Virus record (IMG/VR): IMGVR_UViG_2737471844_000002
Coordinates: 1-64,000 of that record
Reading direction: 5' to 3' (one strand)
From: a virus
Taxonomy: Duplodnaviria > Heunggongvirae > Uroviricota > Caudoviricetes
Length of the DNA stretch: 64,000 nucleotides
The translations under genes and the position numbers were made by a program. Numbering within the stretch: position 1 is the first letter of the stretch; each line of letters opens with the position of its first letter. This document shows positions 1,987 to 51,857 of this stretch, one piece after another. The notes under the pieces were generated by a model, which made no database searches, had not been told where the DNA came from, and saw nothing but the letters and a program-made list of their open reading frames with translations.

Positions 1987-2024
1987 AAGTCACAAACAAC
2001 CACAGATAGCGCAGGTTATCACAC

Positions 2025-2303: not shown

Positions 2304-2317
2304 CGAGGTGTCATTTT

Positions 2318-2656: not shown

Positions 2657-2666
2657 CAGGTGCTTT

Positions 2667-2954: not shown

Positions 2955-2962
2955 AGGGCGTT

Positions 2963-3342: not shown

Positions 3343-3409
3343 ATAAGAAAACGTGAAAACCATCCGTATTAATGGAGGTATTCGCACGCGTAAATAACGG
3401 AGATATAAA

Positions 3410-3826: not shown

Positions 3827-3849
3827 GGTTACTGGACAAAGGGGGCGCA

Positions 3850-4053: not shown

Positions 4054-4316
4054 CCATTCTGGACTACATCGCTACTCATCCGGGGTGTAGCGGCGGAGAG
4101 ATCGCCGCAGCACTGAATACCCCAACCACAGCCATTAATGCTGAGTTACGCCGACTTTGGCGCGGCGGCTTAGTCATCAGAACAAACCGCAGCACAGGTG
4201 GTCGCGCTCGCAAAACAGGAGGCCAGGCTTCTTACCACGTAAACCCGATGCCGTTCGGGTGCGGCAATCCACTTACTCACATGTTTAACCAGCTACTGAA
4301 GGAAGCCAGAGCATGA
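4050..4316 (+). CDS. Small putative winged-helix DNA-binding protein
   Basis: ILDYIATHPGCSGGEIAAALNTPTTAINAELRRLWRGGLV resembles a wHTH. Confidence 0.45.
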   Translation: MTILDYIATHPGCSGGEIAAALNTPTTAINAELRRLWRGGLVIRTNRSTGGRARKTGGQASYHVNPMPFGCGNPLTHMFNQLLKEARA

Positions 4317-4612
4317 GCACCATCAACCACCAGAAGCTACGCGAACTGGCATTTGCCCTGCAACGAATGGCAACGCCTCAAAAATTACTGGCATTTCGCG
4401 CAATGCTCTCGCCGTCTGCTGTGCTGGCACTGCTGAATGAGCTGGAGCACGCCAGAACCACGGCTCCTGCCATTCGCCTGACGCTCCATCATGAAATCGC
4501 TGATTTCTGCGCGACGTTGGAGGCGCCGGGCGAACCGGAAACGCCGGAAGCAATACAGCAAGAGCTGCTGCAACGCATTGACAAGGTTTTTGATTTTTTT
4601 CTGAACCAGTAA
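4313..4612 (+). CDS. Ea22/Ead-like early protein
   Basis: N-terminal pattern QKLRELA...LLAFRAML.P..VLALLNELE, recalled as typical of lambdoid Ea22-like proteins. Confidence 0.45.
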   Translation: MSTINHQKLRELAFALQRMATPQKLLAFRAMLSPSAVLALLNELEHARTTAPAIRLTLHHEIADFCATLEAPGEPETPEAIQQELLQRIDKVFDFFLNQ

Positions 4613-4733
4613 GAAACCAGAACATGCACACACAAAAAAACCGCTTGCCATGCCGCAATCAGTCAGGTTACATTTCCGCTGCACCTCATAAAACGGGTGC
4701 CGGGATTTCCACCCCGCTGACAACTACAGCGCA

Positions 4734-4756
4734 CAACCGCGCCAGCGGTTTTTTTG
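4734..4756 (+). terminator. Possible rho-independent terminator
   Basis: AACCGC-GCCA-GCGGTT hairpin followed by TTTTTTT. Confidence 0.35.
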
Positions 4757-4934
4757 TGCGTACTGTATCGCCACGTCTTTTTCGCACACGAATTATGGTG
4801 GGGCGTACGGGGCCGACTTCGGTCGGGCCGGGTTCTGTAGTTGCCGGTTGTGGAAACCCTGTACGTCTCACCACCCCGAGTTTTCCACCTCTGGATGGTG
4901 AGTTTTCAAAACTTGCAACTACAGAGGCCACACC

Positions 4935-5165
4935 ATGGCAAACCGCAAACAGCACCGCGCTATCGCGGAGCGTCGTCACATCCAGACTGAAATCAACCGC
5001 AGACTTTTCCGCGCATCACGCGTCGCGCAAATCATGCACATCAATATGCTGCATGAGCGCAGCCACGCACTATCAAACATCTATTCCGCCGCTGTTTTCA
5101 GCTATCTGGCGGATGATCTGCACGAGCTTCAACAGCTCATCCAGCAGCAAAACAAACTCCATTAA
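4935..5165 (+). CDS. Hypothetical protein (76 aa)
   Basis: Six-frame ORF. Confidence 0.4.
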   Translation: MANRKQHRAIAERRHIQTEINRRLFRASRVAQIMHINMLHERSHALSNIYSAAVFSYLADDLHELQQLIQQQNKLH

Positions 5166-5237
5166 TTCCTGTTCCGGGCCTTTCCTGCACCTTGCGGCGG
5201 GAGGCCTTCGCACATCTGTAACAAGAGGATTGCCGCA

Positions 5238-5603
5238 ATGATTCTCGCCAACGACTTTATTGAATACCTGCTCAACACAGAACGTGATCTTGCCGCTCGC
5301 GTGCGTGAACGTTATGACATGTACCTGAAATCCCTGCCTGTACCGCAGCTCGCTGACGGAAAGATTGTTATTGATGGTCGCTACATGATTGACAGCCACG
5401 AGGGAAATTACAGGCTTTACCGCATTGAAGGTGGCACCCCGTCCGTTATTGGCATTTACCAGCGCCCATCCTCTGCAATCGTCGATGTGATTGCCGACAG
5501 CATCCGCATCACACATCGCCATGCCGACACAGAAGACACCGTGCTGGAAATTCAGCGGCTGGCTACAGTCTGCCGCGACACCCTGAATGGCATGACGAAG
5601 TAA
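5238..5603 (+). CDS. Hypothetical protein (121 aa)
   Basis: Six-frame ORF directly upstream of gene A. Confidence 0.5.
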   Translation: MILANDFIEYLLNTERDLAARVRERYDMYLKSLPVPQLADGKIVIDGRYMIDSHEGNYRLYRIEGGTPSVIGIYQRPSSAIVDVIADSIRITHRHADTEDTVLEIQRLATVCRDTLNGMTK

Positions 5604-5609
5604 ATCACT

Positions 5610-5866
5610 ATGACGGCAGAGTACATCAGGGACTGGCAACAACCGCGCCACGCAGTGGGGCGTGAAGGAACGGGGATCCCCGCTCCTGAATCCGCGCTTT
5701 CCTCCTGGCTGGATGCCTACCGGGCAGAGAACGAGCGCCGCCAGGAAATGGCTGATGCGGCGTTCTCCGCCACGCCGCTGGGCAACCTGATTAATAAAAG
5801 CCTGGACGCACAGGAAAAACAGGACAAAACCATCACACTGGCAGGAGACGCCAGAAAACAGACACG
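5610..5866 (+). pseudogene. A: Replication initiator gene A, 5-prime fragment, truncated by the Mu-like insertion
   Basis: The ORF reads in frame into the gene A body at 42741 once 5867..42740 is removed; its apparent stop (5874..5876) lies inside the inserted element. Confidence 0.7.
5862..5866. repeat. Target-site duplication ACACG, left copy
   Basis: Identical 5-mer at 42736..42740. Confidence 0.6.
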
Positions 5867-6171: not shown

Positions 6172-6819
6172 TCATGCTGATTTTTTACTTACAGATTTTG
6201 TTTCTTGCTCCGGTGTGACATCGGTCTGATCACCCGGCGATTGTGGTCGTATATGAGATTCAACAATTCGCAAAATCTCTCTGTCAGTATCTTCGTTTCC
6301 ATGTAATGCTACTCGGATTGCATCCTTAAGTGATTTCCTGATATTCAGACTTTGGATAGCATTCTCTTGCTCCTCCAGCGTGTTAGCGGCTTGTTTCGCT
6401 TGCCTAGTGGGTTGTTGCAGACGTTTTAGGATTCCTTTGATACCCATATCACATATTGCATTTATCAATAGTTCTTTATCTTCTGTGGACGCTCTTTTCA
6501 ATAACTCGTTAGCTAGCTCGTTTGTAATATCGGGAGAAGGCTGCGCTGTTTGGTTTGATAAAGAGTTTGCTGTGGCGGTGAGTTCCTCACCATAAGCGAG
6601 CCAATTTAAACTCACCTGCTCTTTATCTGAGATAAGGCAGGCTATTTTAAAAGAGGGTTCTGTTCCTTTATGGATGTAGTTGTTTAAGGTTGAAGGAGGG
6701 ATACCCCAGTCGCTCGCGGCAGTTCTGACACTGCGCCCACCTATTAGTTTTACTAAACGCTCTCTAAAACTTTCTTTTCCTCGGTCAACTAAAGAAAAAG
6801 CGTCATCATTTTTTGTCAT
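6172..6819 (-). CDS. Mu c-like repressor (DNA-binding)
   Basis: Leftmost gene, divergent from ner; RBS AGGAAAGGA before ATG at 6819; SVRTAASDWGIPPSTLNNYIHKG...VSLNWLAYGE resembles a phage repressor HTH. Confidence 0.6.
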   Translation of the reverse strand: MTKNDDAFSLVDRGKESFRERLVKLIGGRSVRTAASDWGIPPSTLNNYIHKGTEPSFKIACLISDKEQVSLNWLAYGEELTATANSLSNQTAQPSPDITNELANELLKRASTEDKELLINAICDMGIKGILKRLQQPTRQAKQAANTLEEQENAIQSLNIRKSLKDAIRVALHGNEDTDREILRIVESHIRPQSPGDQTDVTPEQETKSVSKKSA

Positions 6820-6952
6820 TTTTCCTTTCCTATTTAACCAATTGATTTTCAATCACAAAACCATATAAAGACCAAAAGCAAAAAGAAAATACAAAGAAAA
6901 GGCTATTTTTGCTTTACATGGGTTACATATGGATCAATACTTATATCCGAAG

Positions 6953-7001: not shown

Positions 7002-7238
7002 ATGATGGTTAGAAATGAAGTAATGAACCTGGACTGGCACCGCGAGTACATTGTCGCAGCTGTGCACACCAAAGGTTTTACATTGCGTGAACTTTCTGAA
7101 CGCGCTGGTCTAAAAAAAGACTCTTTAAAAAATGCACTGTATCGCTCATGCCCTAAATATGAACGCATCATAGCCGATGCTATTGGTGTGGAACCTGCGG
7201 AGATCTGGCCAAGCCGGTATGCCAGTAAGGCGGCATAA
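7002..7238 (+). CDS. ner: Ner-like DNA-binding protein
   Basis: DWHREYIVAAV...LRELSERAGL...ADAIGVEPAEIWPSRY closely matches the Mu Ner / Nlp family as I recall it. Confidence 0.85.
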   Translation: MMVRNEVMNLDWHREYIVAAVHTKGFTLRELSERAGLKKDSLKNALYRSCPKYERIIADAIGVEPAEIWPSRYASKAA

Positions 7239-9280
7239 TGTTTTATTCAGCCAATGAACTGGCCGGTCTTACTGGTTTGCCCGGTACAGTTCAGGGGGTG
7301 CGCTGGACGCTCAATCGGATCACAGAGACGCACCCGGAATGGAAGCGCAAGCGTGAAGGCACCAAAGCATTCGAGTATCACATCGACTGCCTGCCCGCTG
7401 AAGCGCAGAAGGTTTTACGTAAGCGCCTGACTCATCAGGTTCTGGAAGATGCGCAACTGCCCGCCGTGGTTGAGCAGAAGGCAGTTAAGAACGTCACCAT
7501 TCGCGATGAACTGGAAGTGATGGTCAAATGCCCGGAGCTGGCATTACGCGAAGTTCAGGCACTGACCGACAAGCAAAAGGCCATCGCTGATGCGCGGATA
7601 TTGCTGGCTACCGAAGTGCATAAACTGCGTGAATACGCAGGAATGTCCAGGACGGCAGCGATAAAACACATTGTTGATGGTATCCGCCAGGAGGCTTTGC
7701 CCGAGCGCGTTATTGTGGCAGGTAATACCGCCAATGCCCGACAGGGTAAGCGAACTGGCGTCAGTACAGGGAGTTTACAGGAATGGTATTCCGCCTGGCT
7801 GATGGCGCGCGGTGATGCCAATCAGTTACTGGCGTTACTGTCCCCCGGTCATCATAAGGGGACACCGTGGGAGCAGGTCTGGTGGTTGAGCGATTTCTTT
7901 ATGTTCTATCGCTCATGGAAGCGCCCGACTGTTGAATATGCGTATCGTGAGTTTTCAGTCTGGTGGCATGAAAAACACGCGAATGATGCGGGAATGCTGG
8001 CGGCACTGCCTTCAGTTCACGCAGTAAGACGGGTGTTAAGCAACGTCCCGGTGATTGTTAAGGAGCGTTTCCGCTCCACCGGTTCAGCCTGGCGTTCGCT
8101 CAATCCCTTTGTGCGGCGCGACTGGAGCACATTACCGGTTAATGCGGTATGGGTCGGGGATGGTCACTGTATGAAAATGACCGCGTTTAACCCCCTGACC
8201 GGCAATATTTTCCGGCCAGAGGTGACGCTGGTTATGGATGCGGGGCAGCGCTTTGTTGTGGGCTGGTCACTGTCCCTGTCGGAAAACGTGATAGCCGTTG
8301 CTGATGCGCTGCGTCATGGCATGTCACAGCACGGGATACCGCTGATTTATTACTCCGATAACGGGGGCGGCGAAAAAAACCGGGTGCTTGATGCCGATAT
8401 TACCGGGATTTTGCCCCGGCTGGGTGTGGAGCATCACACGGGGATACCAGGTAACCCACAGGGGCGCGGGGTGATTGAAAGGCTTAACAAGGAAATTCCC
8501 CGGGATGTGGCCCTGAGTTTCCAGACGTACTGCGCAAGGGATGCAGACAAGGAAACCGTAATGATGCAGCAACGGATTATGCAGTCAGCCATTAAGGCCA
8601 CCCACAAAGGGAAAGAACTGACAAAACGGCAGGTTAAGGCGAGGGATGAAATCCCCACCTTTGAGCAACTGATGGCAGCCATAGAGCTGGAGGTCAGACG
8701 CTATAACAACCGGCCACACAGCAGCCTACCCCGCAAAGAGGATGGCGAATATTACAGCCCGGCAGCGTATCGCCGGAAACTGATAAAAGAGCAGAATGTT
8801 GAAATTGATTTCCTGTCGCCGGAAGAACTGCATGAAATGTTCAGGCCGGAAGTGACGCGCAAAACATTTCGCGGGGAAATTCAGTTATTCAACAATATTT
8901 ATTACTCATATGATCTGGCCGCAGAGCACGGGAATGAAGTCAGGGTCAGTTACGATATTCATGATGCAAACAGCGTCATTGTCCGGCGGGCTGATGGCTC
9001 TTATATCTGCGATGCCATCTGGAACGGTAACAAGGTTGATGCCTTCGCTAAACCAGTTATCGAACAAAAACTGGAGAAACGCGTCAGGGGCCGCATTGCA
9101 CGGGCCACGCAGAAAATCGAAGAGGCTAAACGCGAGCTTACCCCGGCTATTACGCAGAAGCCTGACTTTAATCTGGGATATAGACTGGAGCGCCCGGAGA
9201 AAAAGGAAAAAGAAGAACTTTATTTATTCGCATCTGAACGCGAGCGCAATTTAAAGAAAAACGGCACAAACAACCGTTAA
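7238..9280 (+). CDS. A: Mu-type DDE transposase (MuA-like)
   Basis: 680 aa, directly after ner and before the AAA+ B protein; Mu transposase domain organisation. Confidence 0.9.
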   Translation: MFYSANELAGLTGLPGTVQGVRWTLNRITETHPEWKRKREGTKAFEYHIDCLPAEAQKVLRKRLTHQVLEDAQLPAVVEQKAVKNVTIRDELEVMVKCPELALREVQALTDKQKAIADARILLATEVHKLREYAGMSRTAAIKHIVDGIRQEALPERVIVAGNTANARQGKRTGVSTGSLQEWYSAWLMARGDANQLLALLSPGHHKGTPWEQVWWLSDFFMFYRSWKRPTVEYAYREFSVWWHEKHANDAGMLAALPSVHAVRRVLSNVPVIVKERFRSTGSAWRSLNPFVRRDWSTLPVNAVWVGDGHCMKMTAFNPLTGNIFRPEVTLVMDAGQRFVVGWSLSLSENVIAVADALRHGMSQHGIPLIYYSDNGGGEKNRVLDADITGILPRLGVEHHTGIPGNPQGRGVIERLNKEIPRDVALSFQTYCARDADKETVMMQQRIMQSAIKATHKGKELTKRQVKARDEIPTFEQLMAAIELEVRRYNNRPHSSLPRKEDGEYYSPAAYRRKLIKEQNVEIDFLSPEELHEMFRPEVTRKTFRGEIQLFNNIYYSYDLAAEHGNEVRVSYDIHDANSVIVRRADGSYICDAIWNGNKVDAFAKPVIEQKLEKRVRGRIARATQKIEEAKRELTPAITQKPDFNLGYRLERPEKKEKEELYLFASERERNLKKNGTNNR

Positions 9281-9298: not shown

Positions 9299-10192
9299 AT
9301 GAGTTTAATTACGCAATTAAATGACGTAATGGCCCGTCGCGGCTTTACGCAGACCCACGTTGCCCGTGCTATTGGTCGTAGCAGCGCCGTTATCAACCAG
9401 TATTTGCAGGGCAAATATCAGGGCGATATGGCTGATATTGAAGAACGCATTTCTGCCTTTGTGACCCGTGAGCGGGAAAAGGAAAACAGCCGCCGTATTA
9501 AAGCGAAATTTGTTGCCACCGGTATGGCTGCCAAAGGACTGGAAGTGCTGGCCTATGCTCACCTGGAATGTGAAATCTGCGTACTGTATGGCGCGGCAGG
9601 TCTTGGCAAAACAATGATTCTGCGTGAATACGCCGCCAGAAACCGGGATGCGGTCCTGATTGAAGCTGACCCGGGCTATACAGCCAGAACACTGCTTGAG
9701 GAGCTGTGCCGCCAGCTGGGGGTAAAAGTTCGCGGCAATATCCACGAACTGATTGATGCATGTGTGCGAGAACTGCGTGATTCCGGTCGCCTGCTGATGG
9801 TGGACGAGGCTGAACTGCTCCCCTATCGCGCACTGGAGGTTCTGCGCCGTCTGCATGACAAAGCGGGTATCGGGATTGTCCTGGCGGGTATGCCACGCCT
9901 TCTGATTAACCTCAAGGGACGTCGCGGTGAGTTCGCCCAGTTATACAGCCGTGTGGCGCTGGCGCTTAACCTGGGTGATACGCTGGCGCAGGAAGATTTT
10001 AACCAGATAGCCACCGGGCTGATGCCGGAAGCAGCAGAGCCGGAAATCAGCGAGGCGCTTTATACACGTTCGCTGGGTAATGCCCGCCGCCTGTTCAAAC
10101 TGGCGCGTGGTGTGTACCGGATTTGTGATATCAGCGATGCGCCGGTCAGTGTGCAGGCCATTGATAAATTCGCAGAAATGTTAATTCACTGA
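9299..10192 (+). CDS. B: Transposition ATPase (MuB-like, AAA+)
   Basis: Walker A GAAGLGKT, Walker B LLMVDEAE, N-terminal HTH. Confidence 0.9.
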   Translation: MSLITQLNDVMARRGFTQTHVARAIGRSSAVINQYLQGKYQGDMADIEERISAFVTREREKENSRRIKAKFVATGMAAKGLEVLAYAHLECEICVLYGAAGLGKTMILREYAARNRDAVLIEADPGYTARTLLEELCRQLGVKVRGNIHELIDACVRELRDSGRLLMVDEAELLPYRALEVLRRLHDKAGIGIVLAGMPRLLINLKGRRGEFAQLYSRVALALNLGDTLAQEDFNQIATGLMPEAAEPEISEALYTRSLGNARRLFKLARGVYRICDISDAPVSVQAIDKFAEMLIH

Positions 10193-21611: not shown

Positions 21612-23207
21612 ATGGCACAGCTTGTTGATATTTACGGACGCCCGCTGAAACGTGAGGCACTCAAAACCACGCAGACGGTCAGAGTGGCGGAACGGCTGCG
21701 CATTTATCCAGACCACCCGTCGCGTGGTCTGAACATCAGAAAACTGCCGCGCATTCTGGAAGCCGCCGAGCGTGGTTATCTTCCTGCGCAGGCGATGCTG
21801 TTTGCGGATATGGAAGAGCGTGACGGGCACCTGTTCGCCGAGATGGAAAAGCGCAAAAAAGCGTTGCTGACGCTGGACTGGTCGGTGGAGCCGCCCCGCA
21901 ATACCTCGAAGGCAGAAAAGGAGCTGGCCGCCGCCGTGGATGAATGGCTGCACGGCATCCCGGACATGGAGGACATCATCCTCAACGGGATGACCAGTGT
22001 CGGTTACGGCTTCAGCTGTCAGGAAATCAGCTGGGCGTTCGTGGATAAAACGTGGTTACCGGATGCGGTGACGCTGCGCCCGCATAACTGGTTCATTACC
22101 CTGCCGGAACACAATGACGAACTCCGGCTGGATGACGGCGGTCGCGGGGAAGACGGTAAGGACGGTTCCGCGCTGTGGCCGTTCGGCTGGCTGGTTCACC
22201 GTTACAACGCCCGGTCGGGATTTCTGGGTTCATCCGGTCTGTTCCGCGTACTGGTCTGGCCGTATCTGTTCAAAAACTTTGCGCTGCGTGATATGGCGGA
22301 ATTCCTGGAGATTTACGGCCTTCCGGCGCGTATTGCGTACTATGCACAGGGCACCAGTGACGAAGACCGGGACAACATTCTCGAAGCCCTGGTCAATCTG
22401 GGCCATGAAGCGGTGGCAGCCCTGCCGCAGGGTAACGAGATTGAGTTCAAGGAGGCCGCGTCCGGCGGACCGGAGGCGTTCATGTCGATGGTGGAATGGG
22501 CAGAGCGCACCACCTCAAAAGCAATTCTGGGCAGTACGCTGACCAGCCAGGCTGACGGTAAAACCTCCACCAACGCGCTGGGTAATGTGCATAACGAGGT
22601 CCGGCACGACATTCTGGCCGCCGATGCGCGCCAGCTGTCCGGCATGTTCAGCAGCCTGATACAGATGATGGCCAGCCTGAACGGCTGGCAGGATATCCCG
22701 CCACGCCGTCTGCCGCGTCTGGTGTTTGATGTGCAGCAGGAAGCCGACATTAAGGGCGTGGCGGAAGCCGTCAGTGTGCTGGTCAACAGTGTGGGGATGA
22801 AGGATATCCCGGCGTCGTGGGTGCGCAAAAAAACCGGTATCCCCACCCCGAAAGACGGCGAAGAGGTGCTGGTGCCGGTGGCACAGCGTCTCCCTGTGCA
22901 GGCGGGCCTCAGCCAGCTGCGTGAGCGGATGAATGTTGCCGCACTCAGTCAGCAGGACAACGGGGAGGACGACCTGGCACAGAACGCCATCGACCGGGCA
23001 GAGCTTCCGGCAGAGGCCATCGCGCAGGGGATGAACGAACTGGTGGCCCCACTGGTGCAGGCCATACAGGAAGGCCGGGATGCAGACGAGGCCATGAACA
23101 TACTGGCGGAAGCCTGGCCGGAACTGCCGGATGACACGCTGCGGCAGTTGCTGACGCAGGCATTCTTTGTGGCGGATATCTGGGGGCGACTGAATGCCGA
23201 CAGCTGA
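21612..23207 (+). CDS. Portal protein (Mu gp29-like)
   Basis: 531 aa, directly after the large terminase. Confidence 0.75.
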   Translation: MAQLVDIYGRPLKREALKTTQTVRVAERLRIYPDHPSRGLNIRKLPRILEAAERGYLPAQAMLFADMEERDGHLFAEMEKRKKALLTLDWSVEPPRNTSKAEKELAAAVDEWLHGIPDMEDIILNGMTSVGYGFSCQEISWAFVDKTWLPDAVTLRPHNWFITLPEHNDELRLDDGGRGEDGKDGSALWPFGWLVHRYNARSGFLGSSGLFRVLVWPYLFKNFALRDMAEFLEIYGLPARIAYYAQGTSDEDRDNILEALVNLGHEAVAALPQGNEIEFKEAASGGPEAFMSMVEWAERTTSKAILGSTLTSQADGKTSTNALGNVHNEVRHDILAADARQLSGMFSSLIQMMASLNGWQDIPPRRLPRLVFDVQQEADIKGVAEAVSVLVNSVGMKDIPASWVRKKTGIPTPKDGEEVLVPVAQRLPVQAGLSQLRERMNVAALSQQDNGEDDLAQNAIDRAELPAEAIAQGMNELVAPLVQAIQEGRDADEAMNILAEAWPELPDDTLRQLLTQAFFVADIWGRLNADS

Positions 23208-24360
23208 CGATGTTGACCTGGGTTATGCGTATACCCTGAAACCGGAAGAAGCGATTACGTATTTCGAAAGCAAGGGATACGTTATCGGCTTCCGCTGGCA
23301 CGATGTGAGGGACATCGCCAGTGCCCGGGCGTTCACGGTGGCAGGCGTGCTGAAACTGGATGTTCTGAAGGATATCCGTGATGGCCTGACGACGACACTG
23401 GCTGATGGCGGGACGTTCCGGGAGTTTGCAGCACAACTGGAACCACTGCTGGAATCAAAAGGCTGGCTGGGTAAAAAGCTGATTGTGGACGAGGACACCG
23501 GCGAACTGCACGGCAGACAGCTGACGCCGCGCCGGTTGCGCACGATATTTGATACCAACATTCAGTCCGCCTATAACGCCGGGCGTTATCAGCAACAGAT
23601 GGCGAACGTGGCTGACCGGCCTTATTTTGAGCGCGTGGCGGTGATGGACCTTCACACCCGCCCGAAACACGCCGCCCTGAACGGTTTTACCGCCCGGGCG
23701 GATGACCCGGTCTGGGAGTATTTCTACGCGCCGGACGGATACGGATGCCGCTGCCGTATCCGGGCGCGTTCAGCGTCTGATGTGGAGAAATACGGCCTGA
23801 CGGTGCAGAGCAGCGAGGGGCGGCTGGTTGAGGTTGAACAGGAATATGGTCAGCCGGGCCAGACCATCAGAACGATGGGGCTGAAGATGCCGGACGGCTC
23901 CGTGTATACCGCCGACCCGGGCTTCGGATTTAATCCCGGTCGGGTGGCATGGCAGCCGGAACCGGAAAAATACGATTACCGCAGCGCCCGCCAGTATGTC
24001 ACCGGCACTCTGACCGGGCCGGATTTTGCCCGGGGACTGGCGAACGTCAGCGAACTGGATGCGCGCCAGCGATATCCGCTGGCCATCCGTTCACCGGAAC
24101 AGGTCGCCGCCACGGGCGCTGCACGGCAGACGGTAAACCTTACGGCTGATGTCATGAAGCGCCTCAGTGCAGCAGACACGCCCCCGACCGCCGCCGACTA
24201 TGTGCTGATGCAGCAGACCATCGAACGGGCGGAGCATGTCACACAGGACGGCAACGCGTGGCGGTATGCGTTACAGTCGGGCGACCGCTGGTCGGTGGTG
24301 ACGGTGGAGGATGACGCGCTGACAGACTGGGTTATGCAGGATACCCCGGAGGCATCATGA
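23194..24360 (+). CDS. Head morphogenesis protein (Mu F-like)
   Basis: Size and position after the portal. Confidence 0.7.
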   Translation: MPTADDVDLGYAYTLKPEEAITYFESKGYVIGFRWHDVRDIASARAFTVAGVLKLDVLKDIRDGLTTTLADGGTFREFAAQLEPLLESKGWLGKKLIVDEDTGELHGRQLTPRRLRTIFDTNIQSAYNAGRYQQQMANVADRPYFERVAVMDLHTRPKHAALNGFTARADDPVWEYFYAPDGYGCRCRIRARSASDVEKYGLTVQSSEGRLVEVEQEYGQPGQTIRTMGLKMPDGSVYTADPGFGFNPGRVAWQPEPEKYDYRSARQYVTGTLTGPDFARGLANVSELDARQRYPLAIRSPEQVAATGAARQTVNLTADVMKRLSAADTPPTAADYVLMQQTIERAEHVTQDGNAWRYALQSGDRWSVVTVEDDALTDWVMQDTPEAS

Positions 24361-42649: not shown

Positions 42650-42735
42650 ATTTTGCGCTTTATTCTGGATTTTTTTTATTATGTCAACCGTTCAAAATAA
42701 AGCGCTAAATAGTCCAGAAAAAATCGCGAAGTTAC
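42650..42735. repeat. Right end of the Mu-like element with inverted copy of the terminal motif (AGTCCAGAA at 42711..42719)
   Basis: Reverse complement of the right terminus matches the left terminus in register at 17 of 26 positions when the right terminus is taken as 42736. Confidence 0.5.
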
Positions 42736-42740
42736 ACACG
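42736..42740. repeat. Target-site duplication ACACG, right copy
   Basis: Identical to 5862..5866. Confidence 0.6.
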
Positions 42741-45291
42741 CGGCGCGGTGGATGAAGCCATGGCCTCGCTGCGCCTGCTGCCGTCCTATCTGCGCGATCC
42801 GCTTATTCGCCACCTCTCCTTCCTTCGCAAAAAACAGGAAGCCGATCGCCGGAAAGGCAAAAAGAGCTGGCAGGCGGAACGCTATGCACGCGGAACCCTG
42901 CGCAAAATATTCGAACGTCTGGATCGCACTGACGGACGCTGGCTGACACCGGGTTATCGCTCCCTTGCCGGACGCGAACGCCTGGACGATTTGCTTTACC
43001 TGCCGCAGCTCAACAAACACCAGATACAGACGTTGGCCACCATGACGGCGGCGATGTTCAGCAGCACCTTCGAAAAGCTCTGCGATGGCTTTGGCGCCAG
43101 AGATGGCGAGCTGACCATGGATGTAATGTTGAAGGCTTACCGGATGCTGGCTCGTATCGCATTACGCCTGCACATCATGCCGCCACATTACGAAGCCCTG
43201 AACAAGAGCGAACCGGATACGGAACTGCTGCCGGGCGCAATCCTTCGCCTGACCTGTGCGGACTGGTGGAAACGCAAACTGTGGCTGTTACGTTGCGAGT
43301 GGAGAGAAGAACAACTCCGCGCCGCCTGTCTGGTTTCCAGAAAAACATCGCCTTATCTGAGCCAGGACGCGTTAAGCGAGTTTCGCGCACAGCGCGAGAA
43401 AACACGCGATTTCCTGAAAAGTTTCATGCTGGAAAACGAAGACGGGTTCACGATTGATCTCGAGACAGTGTATTACGCGGGAGTAAGTAACCCGGTTCAC
43501 CGTAAGGCAGAAATGATGGCCACCATGAAGGGGCTGGAACTTCTGGCCGAAGCCCGTGGTGACAAAGCGGTGTTTCTGACTGTCACCTGCCCGTCAAAAT
43601 ACCACGCAACAACGGAGAACGGTCATCCGAATCCCAAATGGAACGGGGCCACCATGCGCGACTCCAGCGATTACCTGGTTAACACGTTTTTTGCGGCGGT
43701 CCGCAAGAAACTGAACCGCGACGGCCTGCGCTGGTATGGCATCCGCACGGTGGAGCCTCACCATGACGGCACCGTGCACTGGCATATGATGGTCTTTGCC
43801 CATCCGGAAGAAATCGACACCATTGTGTCCCACACCCGCGATATTGCCATTCAGGAAGATCGTCACGAGCTGGGCGATGATATTACTCCGCGCTTTAAGG
43901 CGGAGTATGTCGACGGCTCAAAAGGCACGCCAACCAGCTACATCGCCACCTACATCGGAAAAAACCTGGACAGCCGCGCCGTGGATGGCATCGCCCCGAA
44001 AACAGGCAAACCACGCGTTGACCACGAAACCGGAAAATCAATGGCCGAGAGCGTGGAGCGCGCCATCGGCTGGGCGCGCCTTCACCGGGTCCGCCAGTTC
44101 CAGTTCTTTGGCATCCCCTCCCGTCAGGTGTGGCGTGAACTGCGCCGCCTTGCCAGCCAGATGGCACGCAACCCGGAAGGCCCGCAACGGCTGAAGGACG
44201 ACGCAATGGATGCGGTACTCGCTGCCGCTGATGCCGGGTGTTTTGCCTCCTACATTGAAAAACAGGGTGGCGTACTTGTTCCACGCAAGGACTACCTGAT
44301 TCGCACCGCCTACGACCTCGCAGATGAGCTGAACGATTACGGCGAACAGAGCGTACAGATTTACGGGATCTGGTCACCACTCATCGGGGAATCCTCCCGT
44401 GTGTGCACGCACCCGGATAACTGGAAGCTGGTAAGACGTAAACCGGAAGCGGAAGACAGCGCCCGCGAAAATTGTTTTGACCTTCAGGGCGGCCCTGCCG
44501 CCCCTTGGACTCGTGGCAATAACTGTCCCCGTGTACAGGAAACGGACAACAACGGGACAGAACAGCCGGAAGAACGGCCAGCACCGTGGCCGCAGCTTCC
44601 TGACGGCGTTGATGTGGATGAATGGATGCGCTCACTGAAACGGCACGAACGCCGGGCGCTGATGCGTTCGCTGCGTGACAAACAGGCCAAAAACAGCAGT
44701 GATGAAATGCAGAACTGGACACAGAGCCGCAAACAGCCACAGCCTTTGCCTGATAAACACGAATTACTCGCTAAAGAATGGCGGGAGTCTGCCGAATCTC
44801 TCGGCCTGCATATCGGTGAACAGCAGATGCAGCACCTGTTACGGGGCGGCAGCCTGTACGTTGACGGCAGCATCATTGCACCGCAGGGATTTGAAATTGT
44901 ACGCAAACCGGATACCCGCCCGGACAGCCGAATCACGCAGCTCTGGCAGCGCCTGAGCCGTAATCACGGCGTAAGCAGCACGGAGATCCGCCATAACCCG
45001 GTCGCCAGCTATCTGGCACAGCTCGGGGCATCAGACCCCGAAGCCGCCGCACGCCTGGCATCCACACTTCAGCAGGACCAGAACACCATGAAAACACCCG
45101 TTACCGTGCTTTCTGACATGCTGCGCGCCATTCGTGACGCAGAGCACGCACAGAGAATCAGTGAAACCACTGAACACGCCCGCCGCAAAGCAGACCTGCT
45201 GCGGGGTAGCCTGACCAGTGGCAACAAAAAACAGACAGAAACGGGATTCACAAATCCCGCAAATGAGCAAAAAACGCGCCGCGATATATGA
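42741..45291 (+). pseudogene. A: Replication initiator gene A (P2 gpA-like rolling-circle endonuclease), 3-prime part separated from its 5-prime end by the Mu-like insert
   Basis: TVTCPSKYH and VEPHHDGTVHWHMMVF motifs match my recollection of P2 gpA; frame continuous with 5610..5866. Confidence 0.8.
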
Positions 45292-45367: not shown

Positions 45368-46327
45368 ATGAAAATTTGTATCGACGACGGCTCCACCAAC
45401 ATCAAGCTGGCATGGACTGAAAACGGCGAACGCCGCAACGCCATCAGCCCGAACAGCTTCAAGTCGGAATGGTCTGCGCCGTTCGGTGGCTCGCAGCCTG
45501 CGAACTACATGCTTGATGGCGTGCGCTATGGTTTTGATCCGGTCAGCGATCGCTTTGTCCAGACGACCGACACGCAATACCAGTACAGCGATGTGAATGT
45601 CATTGCCATTCATCACGCGCTGGTCAAATCAGGCATCACGCCACAGGAAGTGGATGTTGTTGTCACCCTGCCACTGAGCGAATATTTCGACACTAACGCC
45701 CAGCCGGACATGGCCAACATCAACCGCAAAAAAGCGAACGTTATGCGCCCGGTGGAGTACCAGAACGGTGAGGCATTCACTATCCGTAACGTGCGGGTTA
45801 TGCCTGAATCCATTCCGGCTGGCTTTAAGGCACTGGCTGACATGAGTCCGTTTGAATCCCTGCTGATTGTGGATTTGGGCGGAACCACGCTGGATGTGGC
45901 AAAGGTTCAGGGGCAACTGGCAGGTATCAGCCAGGTGTTTTGCGATCCACACGTAGGCGTTTCTCTGATGGCCGATGCCGTACTGTCGGTGATGGCCACT
46001 AACGGTATGCGCACCAGTCACCACATAGCCAATACCATTATCGAACATCGCCATGATGAAGCCTGGCTGCGCCAGCACATCCACAATGACGCGCATTACG
46101 CCAGCCTGATGGCGGTTATTCGTGAAAAGGAAGAAACACTGAAACAACGTGTTATCCGCGCGCTGGCGGTTTTTTCGGGTTACGGGCGGGTGATGGTTGT
46201 CGGTGGAGGGGCGGAGATTGTGGCACCCGCTATCCGCGAAGCCTGCGGAGTTAATGCGACTTTCATCGCGGACGGGGTGCCACAGTTTGCTCTGGTTAAT
46301 GGGCTGTACGCAATGGACAAGGAGTAA
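45368..46327 (+). CDS. parM: ParM/StbA-like actin-type partition ATPase
   Basis: IDDGSTNIKL...ISPNSFK.EW...QYSDVNVIAIHHAL..SG....EVD...TLPL matches ParM/StbA as I recall it. Confidence 0.75.
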   Translation: MKICIDDGSTNIKLAWTENGERRNAISPNSFKSEWSAPFGGSQPANYMLDGVRYGFDPVSDRFVQTTDTQYQYSDVNVIAIHHALVKSGITPQEVDVVVTLPLSEYFDTNAQPDMANINRKKANVMRPVEYQNGEAFTIRNVRVMPESIPAGFKALADMSPFESLLIVDLGGTTLDVAKVQGQLAGISQVFCDPHVGVSLMADAVLSVMATNGMRTSHHIANTIIEHRHDEAWLRQHIHNDAHYASLMAVIREKEETLKQRVIRALAVFSGYGRVMVVGGGAEIVAPAIREACGVNATFIADGVPQFALVNGLYAMDKE

Positions 46328-46331
46328 ACCA

Positions 46332-46643
46332 ATGACGACTCCAACCAGACGGATAAGTTTCTATCTGAAGCCCACCGCCGTCAAGAACGAAGGAGAAGCA
46401 TGCGCCTGGCTGGACAGCCTTACACCAGAAGCCCGCAAAAGCGGCCAACGCGTGGCTTTTCTGGCCGGGCTGGCACTTCTGAAAATGAATCCGGCAGAGG
46501 CTTACCGACTGGCTGCATGGGCTGATGATGAGGTGTTATCAGTGACACAAACCAAGACAGAACGCCCCGCGTCACAGCCAGTATCAACCGCACAGATAAC
46601 CAGTCAGATGGCCGGAAATATCCGGGCGTTATTTCCTGAATAA
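46332..46643 (+). CDS. ParR/StbB-like partition adaptor candidate
   Basis: Small protein 4 nt after the parM-like gene. Confidence 0.4.
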   Translation: MTTPTRRISFYLKPTAVKNEGEACAWLDSLTPEARKSGQRVAFLAGLALLKMNPAEAYRLAAWADDEVLSVTQTKTERPASQPVSTAQITSQMAGNIRALFPE

Positions 46644-47021
46644 CATCAGGGCGTATTCGCCCTGCCACCAATCCCATAACATAAAGAACGGGGTGCAAAT
46701 CACTATGCACCCCGTTCCAATACAAACCATCAGAAGATCTACACATCTTTCTCAAATGGCCAAGTAATCGAGCTGGTTCAGGAATAAGCAGGCTGCCAAC
46801 ACAAGTGAAGGAGATAAAACTGTAGAACTGATCAATCGTTGGAAACAAGTATTGACAGTATGTTCGAGTAACCCAACTGGATAGATTTTATGCTGATTAT
46901 CCATACAGTAAAAAAGTGAGGATACTCTTTGAATTACGCCAGCAAGAGTGGTAACATTAGTCAATGATTTTCATTAATGTAGTTACCAGCTTACACAAGC
47001 TGATGTTTTATTGGGGGTTTT

Positions 47022-48104
47022 ATGGTAAACGTGAGGGAGGATGAACTTTTCAAACTCATCGAGCAAGGCATCAAAGGCAACGCAAATGCATTTACACTCC
47101 TATGCAGAAAGATGATTAACAACATCCGTAAAAATGATGAGGCTTTAGCTTCTAAGCTGGCTTCGTTAGTTGCTGAGGGAACAGTATTACGTGGGGCATC
47201 TAGTAAGGCTCCTATGCCTGTGGATGGAGACTCCAGACGAAACCTTTTGCAGGAAACATCTGTCAACGCAATTGTTGAAGAACCTGTATGGAATACGGAT
47301 ATCTCAAAGAAGCTGGAGTCAATTGTTAACGAAAGAGAGAATGCGGTTTCTTTGTTCAAAGCTGGTCTTGAACCTGTGAAGACGGTTTTACTTTCTGGCC
47401 CGCCAGGCGTAGGCAAAACAATGTCCGCACATTGGCTTGCTGCAAAGTTAAATTTACCTCTTTTAACATTGGATCTCTCATCTGTAATGAGTTCTCTTTT
47501 GGGAAAAACAGGTAATAATATTAAATCCGTTATGGATTATGCCAAAGAGAAACCATGTGTCCTTTTGCTTGATGAATTTGATGCTGTTGCAAAAAGACGT
47601 GATGATGACAGGGACGTTGGAGAATTAAAACGTTTAGTTACTGTACTCCTACAGACCATAGATGAGTGGCCAGCGACCTCGCTTCTTGTTGCTGCGACTA
47701 ATCACCCTGATATCTTAGATCCGGCTGTTTGGCGTCGATTTGAGCACATCCTTAAATTTAATATGCCATCAGTAGAACTGATAGATAGATATTTAGTCAA
47801 TCATAATATTGAACCTGAACTATCTAAAAAACTTGCACCATTATTAGATGGCATGTCCTTTGCCATCATTAACCGTATTTTGAATTTCTCCAAAAAGAAT
47901 GAGGTACTTAGAAATATTCCATTTGAAAGCTCATTAATAGAAGCCGTAATTACGGAGAGGGTTTCATTGGATGAGTTTAGCGATAATGATCTCAATATAA
48001 TTAAATATCATTTTGACGGTTTTTCAAATAGGAAGATAGCTGAATTAGTTGGTGTTTCACATCCAACAATCGCGAATAAATTACAAAAGTGGGGGATTAA
48101 ATGA
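47022..48104 (+). CDS. AAA+ ATPase with C-terminal HTH (IetA-like)
   Basis: Walker A GPPGVGKT, Walker B LLLDEFD, sensor/Arg-finger ATNHPDILDPAVWRRF, C-terminal NRKIAELVGVSHPTIANKL; AT-rich. Confidence 0.85.
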   Translation: MVNVREDELFKLIEQGIKGNANAFTLLCRKMINNIRKNDEALASKLASLVAEGTVLRGASSKAPMPVDGDSRRNLLQETSVNAIVEEPVWNTDISKKLESIVNERENAVSLFKAGLEPVKTVLLSGPPGVGKTMSAHWLAAKLNLPLLTLDLSSVMSSLLGKTGNNIKSVMDYAKEKPCVLLLDEFDAVAKRRDDDRDVGELKRLVTVLLQTIDEWPATSLLVAATNHPDILDPAVWRRFEHILKFNMPSVELIDRYLVNHNIEPELSKKLAPLLDGMSFAIINRILNFSKKNEVLRNIPFESSLIEAVITERVSLDEFSDNDLNIIKYHFDGFSNRKIAELVGVSHPTIANKLQKWGIK

Positions 48105-50305
48105 TGGAAAGGAACTTACTTTTAGGTAACGGTCATGTTCTGACAAAAAAGGAACCTTTGCCTAAAGGAAGGGATGGTAAGCGCTATCCCTATACTCTTG
48201 AAGAAGTAAGGGAGCATTTAAACCCAGAGATTGATACTTTACTCTCACGCTTTCGCAGTTTGGATGATGCGGCTAAGCCAAGGGGGGAGAGTGTATTCAA
48301 TTTAACTTTACACCCAGCGTTTTTGGGTAAAAGCTACTTTCCGGAAGGATTGCTTAGAGCGACAGGTTTACGGGATGTCGGTAGCCGTCAGGTAATCATT
48401 CGCCCACGGAAAGCGGCACGTCAGTGCGATCAGAATAAGGACTTAGTAACGGCGCAACTGTTTGTTAGCGGTGATGATGATGCCGTTATAAGATTTAAGG
48501 AAATTTTAAATTCCCCTACAGCTCCGAAGGGCGTACAAAAGGATTTGATCGAAATTGAAAGTGTTAGCTTTTTTGAAGGAAAAGAGAGAGCACGCAATTT
48601 TGAGCATGCGAAAAGTGATTTGATAAAATTTGAAGTGGTTCTTCATGCTGGGGTTGAAGACGATGATATCGTTAAAGCCTATATTAGCTATGCGGCACAA
48701 TATGATGTCTCTGTTGATTACAAAAGTAGAATCCAAGTTGGTGGGCTGACTTTCATCGTTGCACACGCGCGACCTGAAGATATGAAAAAAACACTCGATT
48801 TTTCATTAATCCGCGTTGTGCGGCCGATGCCGTCTCTCAGGTGTACTCAGCCGAACATTGTCAGAAAGTTATCTAATATAGTTACACCGGAGCTCCCTAA
48901 TTCTAAAGCTGTTCTTGAATCCGAACGTATTGCCATTTTTGATGGTGGCTTGGGGACAGCTGACTTGAGTAATTGGGTTACGGAATACGTGTATCCAGAC
49001 ACCAAAGAAACAAGCGGATTATTATTGCAGCACGGTAATGAAGTGACATCCACTTTCTTATTCGGACGTGTCGAGGAAAATGCACCTTCTTTTAAAAGAC
49101 CGTTTATGAATGTAGATCATTATAGAGTTCTTTCACCGACATCAGGTGACAATGGCAATTGGGATTTATTTGATGTCCTTAAGAAAATACAGTCCGTTCT
49201 TGATAGTGGTGACTATAAGTTCGCTAATCTAAGTATTGGTCCTCATCTTCCAATTGGTGATGATGAGGTTCATGTATGGACTGCTGTTTTAGACCAAATC
49301 TGTGCTAAGCATGGGATATTACTTACTGTTGCTGTTGGGAATGATGGCAATGAGGACGGTGATGCAGCGAGAATACAACCTCCTTCCGATATGGTAAACG
49401 CGCTAGCGATTGGTGCTGCTGATCGTAGCGGTGAAAAATGGGGGCGGGCACCATATAGCTGTATTGGGCCAGGCAGAAGCCCCGGATTCGTTAAACCTGA
49501 TGGTGTTATTTTTGGTGGAAGCGACGACGAGCCTTTTTACACTTACAACCCTCTGCTTGGTTCTATAGTTGGAGTTCAAGGAACCAGTTATGCCTCTCCA
49601 TTAGCATTGAGAACGGCCGCTGGAGTTGCGGCTCTATCAGGAACTCCATTGAACACCATTGCATTGAAAGCGTTGCTTGTTCATCATGCTGAAACATCAA
49701 GAAAATATTCGCGTGAACATATCGGTTGGGGACGGTTTAGTGAGGATCCTAACGTTTTAATCGATTGTCCAAATGATACTGCTACAGTAATTTACTATGG
49801 TTCATTAGCAAAAAATAAATATTTAAGGGCACCGATCCCATTCCCTGATGTTCCCTTTGACGAAGCATTTGAGCTTACCGCTACTTTATGCATTCAAACC
49901 CCAGTAGATCCTGAACATTCAGTAAACTATACAAGGGCCGGTATGCAGGTAACTTTCCGCCCAAGATTCGGCCTTGACGATACCGATACAGATGATTTCT
50001 TTGGTCAAAAAAGCCAGTATAAGACTGAAAGGGAGTGTAGGAGTGAAGGTCATAAATGGGAAACTTGTTTGCACAGAAGCAAAAAGTTCAGTGCTGATAC
50101 ATTATTAAGCGATCCAGTTTTTGATATACGGTATCATGCCCGAGATTCTTCGCGCCATGTTAAGGGAGTTTCAGCCCCTGATATGCAATATGCGATGGTA
50201 ATAAGCGTAAGGGTAAAAGACTTTGATTTATATAATGTTATTCGCCAGCGATATACAATTCTGAATCCTATTCAACTGCGCACACAAATTTCTCTCGACA
50301 CGTAA
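48101..50305 (+). CDS. S8 subtilisin-like serine peptidase (IetS-like)
   Basis: Asp IAIFDGG, His QHGNEVTS, Asn VAVGNDGNE, Ser GTSYASP; start overlaps the ATPase stop (ATGA); AT-rich. Confidence 0.85.
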   Translation: MMERNLLLGNGHVLTKKEPLPKGRDGKRYPYTLEEVREHLNPEIDTLLSRFRSLDDAAKPRGESVFNLTLHPAFLGKSYFPEGLLRATGLRDVGSRQVIIRPRKAARQCDQNKDLVTAQLFVSGDDDAVIRFKEILNSPTAPKGVQKDLIEIESVSFFEGKERARNFEHAKSDLIKFEVVLHAGVEDDDIVKAYISYAAQYDVSVDYKSRIQVGGLTFIVAHARPEDMKKTLDFSLIRVVRPMPSLRCTQPNIVRKLSNIVTPELPNSKAVLESERIAIFDGGLGTADLSNWVTEYVYPDTKETSGLLLQHGNEVTSTFLFGRVEENAPSFKRPFMNVDHYRVLSPTSGDNGNWDLFDVLKKIQSVLDSGDYKFANLSIGPHLPIGDDEVHVWTAVLDQICAKHGILLTVAVGNDGNEDGDAARIQPPSDMVNALAIGAADRSGEKWGRAPYSCIGPGRSPGFVKPDGVIFGGSDDEPFYTYNPLLGSIVGVQGTSYASPLALRTAAGVAALSGTPLNTIALKALLVHHAETSRKYSREHIGWGRFSEDPNVLIDCPNDTATVIYYGSLAKNKYLRAPIPFPDVPFDEAFELTATLCIQTPVDPEHSVNYTRAGMQVTFRPRFGLDDTDTDDFFGQKSQYKTERECRSEGHKWETCLHRSKKFSADTLLSDPVFDIRYHARDSSRHVKGVSAPDMQYAMVISVRVKDFDLYNVIRQRYTILNPIQLRTQISLDT

Positions 50306-50312
50306 TTTTTAT

Positions 50313-50334
50313 GGCCGCGAAAGCGGCCTTTTTT
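50313..50334 (+). terminator. Rho-independent terminator after the peptidase gene
   Basis: GGCCGCGAAAGCGGCC hairpin followed by TTTTTT. Confidence 0.7.
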
Positions 50335-50758
50335 CTGTAATTTTTTTATGAATTTACATGCACGATAGTGCACAAATTTGCACAATTTTTTTGAACGAAT
50401 TTTTGCCCTTCTGGCCCGCGTGGCGGCTGGATCCGTCAGGGATCCGTGCGTGCACAAAAAAACGCGCTTTTTCTGCGCGCAGGTGACGGGGGAACAGCCC
50501 GCGTTTCAGGGGGTAAATAGCATTCCCTGAACGATGTCGCAGCGACACAACAGAATGGCTGTATTTCTCACGCTGAACGTGAAAAAGGCGTGAGGGATTC
50601 TGATTTGATGGGGTGAAAGGTAAGGCCGTCAAAATCGCACTGAGGCGGCGAAGAACATGCAGTCAACGCGGTGGGATTGCGTAAAAGTCTGACCGCCGAT
50701 GATGGCAATAAGCAGAAAAGCGTCGTGAAATTATCTGATTGATACAGGAGCTGGAGAG

Positions 50759-50787
50759 CCGGGGCATAAATTTTTTATGCCCCGGCG
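50759..50787. terminator. Strong 13-bp-stem hairpin between the cargo region and gene Q
   Basis: GCCGGGGCATAAA-TTT-TTTATGCCCCGGC. Confidence 0.35.
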
Positions 50788-50810
50788 AAGCAGCAGACAA
50801 GCGAAGCGCG

Positions 50811-51857
50811 TCAGGATGTGGGCTGGGTATCTAACAGTGCGTAAGGGTTAAAGCGGATCACCTCTTCGCCAAGCCAGTCATTGATGTGCTTCATGGCCTC
50901 CATGACGGGCATCAGCTCGTTAATTGCGTAAACCCGCGCGGCCTTCTCCACATCACCAAACGCACTTTTTTCACCCGGCATCGCCCCCATCAGTTGCGGC
51001 GGAACGCGGTGCGCAGCCAGCACATCATCACGGGATGCCGCCTTAACATTCATGAACTCATCCTTTGCGGTGATCTGCTGGAACGGCAAAATTTGCACAC
51101 CTTCTTTGCCACCGTTGGGCGCATGAATGAGCACGTTTTTAAATGCACCACCACCACGCGCACCCTGTAACGTTTCTTTCAGGGAGTCCATGCTTTCGCG
51201 GTTTACCTGCGCTGCACCGATGTAGATGATGCACCCGGCGTGGGATCCGTTGTCGTAATACAGTTTTCTGAACATGTCCGCCGAATGAGACAGGCTGGCC
51301 GAGAGTAATGCGCCGAGATATTCCGGCATGCCGTAGATTTCCTGGTTAATGTCAGGATTCATCAGGTGGCACACTTTGCCAGGGCGAAACTGAAACGCAT
51401 CCTTGCCATCCTGCACATACCACCATGATTCAAGATCGCTTCCGCGTCGCATGTATTTCGCCAGGGCGTGCCGTAATTTAAGCGGTTCGCCGAGCATATT
51501 GCTTCGAAGCTCAAGGAATGCGTTACCGAACACAAACCAGTCCAGCGCCAGCGCCGAGAAATCCTGCCGGGAAAGCAGCGGGTGCGGAATATAGCAGCCG
51601 AGCAATACATTGCGCTTAAAGTAAAGCGCAGACTGATGCCAGGACGTTTGCCGGGCAGCTCTTGCCAGACCGTACCAGTCCACCGGGGTTTCATACCACC
51701 GCCCGTTATCAGCACAGTACATATTGTCCAGCAGGTCATGCCCGGTCAGGCGATAAGGACCATCAAATGTGAATGCACTGAGCGATGATTCTTTCCTGAG
51801 CGCATCAGCGAGATCAATGCGTGAACTCATGCGCACTTTTTTATTTTTTCTGCTCAT
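50811..51857 (-). CDS. Q: Portal protein (P2 Q-like)
   Basis: 348 aa, minus strand, adjacent to the large terminase, P2 order. Confidence 0.8.
   Translation of the reverse strand: MSRKNKKVRMSSRIDLADALRKESSLSAFTFDGPYRLTGHDLLDNMYCADNGRWYETPVDWYGLARAARQTSWHQSALYFKRNVLLGCYIPHPLLSRQDFSALALDWFVFGNAFLELRSNMLGEPLKLRHALAKYMRRGSDLESWWYVQDGKDAFQFRPGKVCHLMNPDINQEIYGMPEYLGALLSASLSHSADMFRKLYYDNGSHAGCIIYIGAAQVNRESMDSLKETLQGARGGGAFKNVLIHAPNGGKEGVQILPFQQITAKDEFMNVKAASRDDVLAAHRVPPQLMGAMPGEKSAFGDVEKAARVYAINELMPVMEAMKHINDWLGEEVIRFNPYALLDTQPTS

Follow-up and report, generated by a model that had tools for sequence, protein, structure and literature searches.

A catalogued copy of ietAS as probable defence cargo of a P88-like Escherichia coli prophage

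Introduction

What is the function of an AAA+ ATPase and an S8 peptidase encoded side by side between the replication gene A and the packaging genes of a P2-type prophage? The question is raised by positions 47022–50305 of a stretch of viral DNA of 64,000 nucleotides (IMG/VR record IMGVR_UViG_2737471844_000002, positions 1 to 64,000; Caudoviricetes), the whole of which is referred to here as the window. An initial annotation, made from the sequence alone, had taken the two genes for a probable variant of the Iet family rather than for something new. The analysis described below agrees with that reading: the PADLOC models are matched, a published PADLOC call exists, and the pair stands in the catalogue of Rousset et al. 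2022 (PMC9122126), so that the locus is an already known, ordinary catalogued copy of ietAS. It is very probable that the pair constitutes an anti-phage defence cassette of the ietAS type, an accessory load that a P88-like (Peduoviridae, P2-family) E. coli prophage bears in its gpA–gpQ hotspot near cos.

Identification of the gene pair as ietAS

The first protein, IetA, matches the PADLOC model PDLC02196 with an E value of 3.6e-89 over residues 7–356 (profile positions 5–370 of 374), and the second, IetS, matches PDLC02197 with an E value of 6.6e-41 over residues 22–707 (profile positions 24–718 of 749). The comparison with hidden Markov models of defence systems, proposed in the initial annotation as a check, thus gave almost end-to-end matches for both proteins; three further IetA models and five further IetS models of PADLOC are matched as well. 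The top matches in NCBIfam are 'anti-phage ATPase IteA' (NF042959) and 'S8 family anti-phage peptidase IteS' (NF042956).

The same locus has been catalogued before. A 99.9%-identical copy is found in the enteropathogenic E. coli reference strain E2348/69 (NC_011601.1:1875494-1878777), and 'ietAS' is the system named at NC_011601.1:1875494-1878777 in the PADLOC results that Wu et al. (bioRxiv 10.1101/2022.08.21.504612) give as a supplementary table; as the coordinates are equal, the published call applies to the locus described here. Moreover, the supplement of Rousset et al. (PMC9122126) includes WP_000248600 and WP_000970615, the RefSeq accessions used on 99.9–100% identical loci, as ietAS among the curated gpA–gpQ systems. 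Table S5B of that work holds the full 360-residue IetA sequence of the window under the label 'ietAS (Gao et al, 2020)', an entry immediately preceding system 8 (306 occurrences). The labels attached to the two proteins in RefSeq and PHROG are generic ('AAA family ATPase', 'S8 family peptidase', 'unknown function'). We also considered whether the pair is the tested E. coli ietAS of strain ECOR52 (Wu et al.); this identity was rejected, the primers FN0414/FN0415 matching neither the window nor the second E. coli Iet locus, of strain E24377A, that is described in the last section.

The genes ietA and ietS are adjacent and co-oriented, overlap by 4 nucleotides (ATGA) and form a single operon, with a G-rich Shine-Dalgarno sequence upstream of both starts. 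Their GC fractions are 0.39 and 0.43, respectively; the flanking phage DNA has 0.54 and 0.56. The description of two coupled, AT-rich reading frames in the initial annotation is therefore correct as to coordinates, lengths, overlap and composition.

The ATPase IetA

Residues 122–247 of IetA correspond to the Pfam family AAA (PF00004, E value 9.6e-31). The Walker A motif G126PPGVGKT133 (K132/T133), the Walker B motif L181LLDEF186 (D184/E185), the sensor-1 residue N227 and the arginine candidates R238/R239 are all invariant across 40 homologues. A profile search of the PDB relates the ATPase module to p97/Cdc48 (E value 7e-53), which places it in the classical Cdc48/p97 clade. Within this alignment the pore-loop-1 position S158-L159-L160-G161 falls opposite KLAG of the D1 and MWFG of the D2 domain of p97; the loop is kept in the family, without an aromatic residue. 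No solved Iet structure is detectable by sequence in the PDB, and the literature consulted yielded neither a structure nor a mechanistic study of Iet.

The C-terminal tail scores 26.7 bits against Pfam HTH_50, slightly short of the 27-bit cutoff. Since matches to HTH_23 or HTH_50 are found in nearly all IetA homologues and eight residues of the tail are invariant (G333, S335, R337, I339, A340, H347, P348, T349), the helix-turn-helix (HTH) is nevertheless credible, and the annotation of the gene product as a classic AAA+ ATPase with a C-terminal HTH stands. The N-terminal 110 residues have no Pfam match at E values up to 10, the limit of all Pfam searches reported as negative here. IetA has neither a signal peptide nor a membrane segment. 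It is also a full-length match to phrog_3757.

The peptidase IetS

IetS contains the Pfam family Peptidase_S8 at residues 288–544 (E value 4e-17). The complete catalytic set noticed at the outset is indeed present: the triad D281/H311/S496 and the oxyanion residue N414 are invariant in 43 homologues. A role as a secreted subtilase or virulence factor was considered and rejected, the protein having no signal peptide or membrane segment.

The region of about 270 residues in front of the peptidase domain had been described as having no recognisable function, and Pfam supplies none: residues 1–270 are without a match, Inhibitor_I9 included, and the Pfam searches of the N- and C-terminal regions of IetS and of the N-terminal region of IetA together returned one match at chance level. 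The AlphaFold model of full-length IetS is confident (pLDDT 82, pTM 0.86) and divides the protein into the segments given in Table 1. The top structural match of this full-length model is unautoprocessed pro-subtilisin, with 315 aligned residues. When the N-terminal model is compared separately, pro-domains top the list of structural matches with moderate scores; ribosomal protein S6 and ACT domains, which are generic ferredoxin-like folds, score about equally. The models suggest, with moderate support, that the N-terminal region consists of tandem subtilase pro-domain-like modules, a reasonable inference rather than an established fact.

The invariant residues of the region are N5, G11, L14, K27, P30, Y31, L70-H71-P72, G94-S95, R238, R241, R247 and R255, several of which lie at the very N-terminus. 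Indeed, the segment 1–32 (window 48101–48196) follows the strongly conserved pattern NLLLGxGExLT...K27-x-x-P30-Y31. Because it is strongly conserved yet of low confidence in the model, this N-tail is a candidate handle for the partner ATPase.

Conservation of the pair among relatives

IetA homologues at 48–55% identity are covered over 98–100% of the query, and IetS homologues at 41–55% identity mostly over 98–100%, with a steady length of about 730 residues. The ATPase HTH and the extended region in front of the peptidase domain, singled out initially as the parts worth characterising, are consequently family traits: both are aligned full-length in relatives down to about 42–55% identity and lie inside the family models.

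A search of 1.84 billion representatives with a profile built from residues 1–270 of IetS retrieved 878 clusters (50% identity). Throughout the best 150 of these 878 clusters the module begins within the first 13 residues, and the full-length members measure about 723–766 residues; shorter matches were assumed to be fragments. The possibility that the module is a portable sensor domain found no support on this basis, its position being always N-terminal and no fusion to another effector being present in the top 150 of 878 clusters.

The IMG/VR collection contains 165 relatives of IetA, and Iet pairs of the HTH-bearing subfamily are frequent on phage contigs. At 76 of the 83 loci examined ietA is followed immediately by a gene for an IetS relative (–43 to +51 nucleotides from the end of ietA); little or no DNA remains downstream at three of the seven others. 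Farther relatives within the subfamily retain the pair in other surroundings: it adjoins an operon of the cyclic-oligonucleotide-based antiphage signalling system (CBASS) at locus L003, borders a Klebsiella prophage of the P2/HP1 type (L004), and in a lambdoid prophage of Plesiomonas (L005) has lysis genes on one side and packaging genes on the other.

Location, mobility and role of the cassette

The carrier is a P88-like (Xuanwuvirus, Peduoviridae) E. coli prophage in which gene A is followed by parM, a parR-like gene, ietA and ietS, and then by the portal and terminase genes on the opposite strand. The pair therefore does lie between gene A and the packaging genes, as annotated, but the two partition genes intervene after A; gene A itself, which is intact in a related prophage (940 residues, L006), is present here as a 3' fragment only, a Mu-like prophage of 36.9 kb having been inserted into it. 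According to Rousset et al. (PMC9122126) the cos-proximal gpA–gpQ interval is a defence hotspot of P2-like phages with 1,650 gene arrangements, and a partition system occupies this slot in about one quarter of these phages.

Among 5426 complete E. coli genomes the flanks are present in 1424 and the cassette in 32, with an identity of 97.5–100%. In P88 the slot holds four small, unrelated open reading frames. The Enterobacter phage phiT5282H, which belongs to another genus of the Peduoviridae (Novemvirus), has the cassette at 95.8% nucleotide identity, with gene A and the portal gene as its immediate neighbours. This match is limited to positions 46761–50500 of the window (query 462–4201 of window 46300–50800), and because it stops there the interval was taken as the mobile unit; the low-GC stretch coincides with it. 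The ietAS cassette moves between phages.

The neighbouring partition genes raise the question of whether the pair is mainly an addiction module, which by post-segregational killing would stabilise the phage genome in a plasmid state together with parMR, defence being secondary. Here ietAS lies directly beside parM and parR, but in phiT5282H the same cassette stands without them; partition genes may permit plasmid maintenance of such prophages, as suggested by Rousset et al. (PMC9122126), whereas the E. coli copies are chromosomal in 32 of 32 cases. In Plesiomonas a close homologue is carried by a replicon of 396 kb with a plasmid annotation, whereas others have a defence context, such as the one beside CBASS. 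Finally, the first description of Iet was, as a later paper has it, that of a toxin-antitoxin system stabilising pTiC58, and phage protection by other Iet systems is documented in the literature. We consider a mainly addictive function unlikely, and note that genome stabilisation and defence are mutually compatible.

With gene A of the carrier disrupted by the Mu-like prophage, the ietAS copy might instead be the inactive remnant of a dead prophage. This is very improbable in view of two intact reading frames that are 100% identical in nucleotide sequence to copies in three other genomes, a full set of catalytic residues, and a candidate promoter and terminator belonging to the cassette. Less credible still is a phage protease and chaperone serving the development of the phage itself (virion maturation or host takeover), for although the pair is phage-encoded, adjoins the packaging genes and belongs to two PHROG families of 'unknown function', the phage does not need it, as the cassette is present in no more than 32 of the roughly 1424 genomes that share the flanks, the P88 slot is filled by unrelated small frames, the composition is foreign to the phage, the same pair exists outside phages, and models of defence systems are matched.

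Promoter, dyad and terminator

With a candidate promoter and an intrinsic terminator of their own (Table 1), the ietAS genes appear to form one self-contained transcription unit. The candidate promoter scores below the 9/12 threshold of the promoter scanner, hence it is absent from the scanner's list; that list is no better than chance as judged from shuffled sequence (10 promoters against 9.0 expected).

A dyad, GGTAAC-N26-GTTACC, overlaps the candidate –10 element. In all close relatives its position relative to the ietA ATG is exactly –72 and its spacer is 26 nucleotides long. The same –72 dyad is present at L003, a locus with an IetA of 51% identity and with no other resemblance in the upstream DNA. 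The arms mostly co-vary, being either GGTAAC/GTTACC or GGTAAG/CTTACC (the latter at L014, L005 and L003), with a single mixed case (L013), and 667 kb of control sequence contain a single exact dyad. At distant loci the excess over mononucleotide shuffles is only 2–3-fold and unspecific. The dyad was accordingly rejected as a general IetA operator, the exact motif being restricted to L003 and the close clade; an operator function, if there is one, would be clade-specific, with the IetA HTH as the possible binding partner.

Proposed mechanism and its weight

The mode of action of Iet is described in the literature as unknown. Work on other Iet systems assigns the toxic activity to the protease and the antitoxin role to the ATPase; attempts to construct or clone ietA mutants failed there, and the active site of the protease is needed for defence; a Bacillus ietAS shows abortive-infection behaviour and is triggered by the SPbeta phage protein yosG. 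The protease active site so required is intact in the window pair, as are the ATPase motifs.

Starting from what is observed in this copy, namely Iet family membership, intact catalytic residues, operon structure and mobility, we infer the further steps as follows. IetS would be made as a cytoplasmic, self-restrained, zymogen-like enzyme, in which the two pro-domain-like modules, the flexible N-tail or both would keep the peptidase inactive or offer IetA a grip. IetA, as a hexameric unfoldase of the Cdc48/p97 type, would keep IetS harmless by ATP-driven holding, remodelling or unfolding, and its HTH would bind GGTAAC-N26-GTTACC over the –10 element, leading to autoregulation of the operon as in type II antitoxins. 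A competing phage that inactivates or titrates IetA, or stops its supply, would set IetS free to cleave essential proteins of the host or the phage, so that the infection would abort. Taken as a whole, the detailed proposal (IetS as a cytoplasmic zymogen whose tandem modules and N-tail are handled by an IetA hexamer, a protease activity whose licence comes from an ATP-dependent unfoldase and not from simple binding, and repression by IetA of its own operon at the dyad) is tentative, possible rather than probable. If true, this zymogen, unfoldase and autorepression reading would be the first mechanistic model for Iet.

Several points weigh against the overall interpretation of the locus or parts of it. 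The action of IetA on IetS, whether restraint or activation, is transferred by analogy from other Iet systems, and binding of IetA to the dyad is likewise hypothetical. Among more distant relatives, 65 further unique upstream regions lack the exact dyad, with two looser matches. Both NCBIfam equivalog cutoffs are missed (253 against 510 bits for IteA, 115.7 against 900 bits for IteS), and no reported phenotype or phage-protection test of this variant was found in the literature. Relative to the NCBIfam reference pair the scores point to a divergent subfamily; membership of the wider family is unaffected.

As a discovery the locus carries little weight, since the 2022 catalogue has the same proteins in the same hotspot under the name ietAS and defence finders recognise it. 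What is new here is the interpretation of the IetS N-terminal region from structure prediction, the candidate operator dyad, the limits of the cassette (~46761–50500) and the splitting of the carrier by the Mu-like element. The residual value is modest and practical: RefSeq and PHROG still use generic labels for the two proteins, and the pair is a tractable model for the unsolved Iet mechanism. Concrete hypotheses are offered by the modelled pro-domain-like modules of IetS, by its conserved N-tail and by the candidate operator, on a variant present in the model strain E2348/69 and in an isolated phage.

Other features of the window

Table 1. Features of the ietAS locus, its proteins and the surrounding prophages (nucleotide positions refer to the window, residues to the protein named)
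Feature	Position	Strand	Remark
ietA	47022..48104	+	360 aa; AAA+ ATPase
ietS	48101..50305	+	734 aa; predicted cytoplasmic S8 peptidase
Mobile ietAS cassette (promoter region, ietA, ietS, terminator)	~46761..50500	+	extent of phiT5282H match
Candidate sigma-70 promoter, TTGAAT-17 nt-TAACAT	46929..46957	+	read by eye; 8/12 consensus positions, consensus match only
Dyad GGTAAC-N26-GTTACC, candidate IetA-HTH operator	46950..46987	.	overlaps candidate –10
Small hairpin CAGCTTacacAAGCTG	46987..47002	+	between dyad and ribosome-binding site
Intrinsic terminator GGCCGCgaaaGCGGCC followed by T-run	50313..50338	+	8 nt past ietS stop
IetA, N-terminal region	residues 1–110		unannotated
IetA, AAA+ module	residues ~111–300
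IetA, C-terminal HTH	residues ~326–360
IetS, N-tail	residues 1–32		low model confidence, conserved
IetS, helix	residues 33–53
IetS, first beta-alpha-beta-beta-alpha-beta module	residues 63–157
IetS, second beta-alpha-beta-beta-alpha-beta module	residues 175–242
IetS, linker	residues 243–271
IetS, S8 catalytic domain	residues 272–545
IetS, beta-rich C-terminal domain	residues 546–734
Replication gene A (gpA-like), 3' part	42737..45291	+	hotspot left border; cut by Mu-like insertion
parM	45368..46327	+	PHROG partition protein, E 3e-90
parR-like partition gene	46332..46643	+	PHROG partition protein, E 2e-58
Portal gene (gpQ-like)	50811..51857	–	hotspot right border
Mu-like prophage, CI-type repressor	6172–6852	–
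Mu-like prophage, MuA-type transposase	7238–9280
Mu-like prophage, MuB-like ATPase	9299–10192
Mu-like prophage, Mu portal	21612–23207
Mu-like prophage, Mu F	23194–24360

The Mu-like prophage in gene A extends over 5867–42736 (junctions 5862–5866 and 42735–42739) and is flanked by a 5-bp, possibly 4-bp, ACACG duplication. Owing to this insertion the P88-like prophage is split into a left arm (1–5866) and a right arm starting at 42737, and its replication is presumably abolished. Two RNA families of Rfam are found above the gathering score in the early region of the left arm, isrK at 4681–4755 (63.6 bits) and C4 antisense RNA at 4791–4878 (80.5 bits); they lie in a stretch without alignment to the related prophages L001 and L006. 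In the latter, from E. coli A1, where ietAS is 100% identical, the IS66-family element ISCro1 splits the portal gene beside the cassette (L006 17789–20722), a second, independent inactivation of a carrier with ietAS left intact. The same ietAS prophage occupies different chromosomal sites, lying beside btuC in A1 and beside yhbY in VG35A2.

Two hairpins are located between the stop of the parR-like gene and the cassette (46647–46717), just outside the left edge at 46761; one of them (46686–46717) is a perfect 12-bp inverted repeat, GAACGGGGTGCA/TGCACCCCGTTC. They may be the parMR terminator or mark a recombination boundary. At the other side, just downstream of the stop of the portal gene on the minus strand, a perfect 13-bp palindrome, GCCGGGGCATAAA/TTTATGCCCCGGC (50758–50786), is likely a terminator in the cos-proximal region.

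Comparison with known systems

With the cargo of P2, such as old and tin, the cassette shares the slot between the replication and portal genes, the variable content of that slot and the presence of a partition system; the window proteins are unrelated to old and tin, with which they have position alone in common.

A comparison with the Cdc48/p97/VCP unfoldases shows that IetA has the conserved Walker A and B motifs, sensor-1, the arginine pair and pore-loop 1, but differs from them by its single AAA+ module, its family-specific N-terminal region, its C-terminal HTH and the missing aromatic residue of the pore loop. As for the peptidase, the subtilase zymogens with an I9-type pro-domain (pro-subtilisin E, Tk-SP, PCSK9, CspB) have a beta-alpha-beta-beta-alpha-beta module directly upstream of the catalytic domain, and the IetS model suggests a similar arrangement. 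IetS would differ in having two such modules together with a conserved N-tail and a helix, and it differs in being a cytoplasmic protein with no I9 recognisable at sequence level and no signal peptide.

IetA/IetS of Agrobacterium reportedly entered the literature in 2009, when Yamamoto et al. are said to have described them as a toxin-antitoxin system of plasmid pTiC58. As far as a later summary describes it, that system consists of the same gene pair and has the same presumed logic of protease toxin and ATPase antitoxin; it is plasmid-borne and presented as a stability or incompatibility determinant, the comparison being one by description only.

A second, very divergent Iet type is found in E. 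coli E24377A (L002 1030–11001), where an SNF2 gene lies upstream and a methyltransferase and a helicase resembling a type III restriction-modification system lie downstream; this locus, too, is ietAS for PADLOC. It has the same AAA+/S8 pairing with the extra SNF2 gene. Its IetA (326 residues, 31% identical) lacks the HTH tail and has the aromatic pore loop FLG, in contrast to LLG in the window IetA, and its IetS (795 residues) is 22% identical over the catalytic core only. The locus resembles the ietHAS variant described in NAR 2026 and agrees with the co-localisation of type III restriction-modification systems with ietAS reported in the literature.

The closest comparison is that with ietAS as defined by Gao et al. 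2020 and modelled as IetA/IetS in PADLOC and IteA/IteS in NCBIfam. The window pair lies below the equivalog cutoffs of the reference pair and is hence a divergent subfamily, distinct from the reference pair that was tested, but the organisation is the same two-gene operon with the AAA+ ATPase preceding the S8 peptidase, the lengths are similar to those of the models (374 and 749 positions), and the matches take in both the HTH tail of the ATPase and the N-terminal region of the peptidase.

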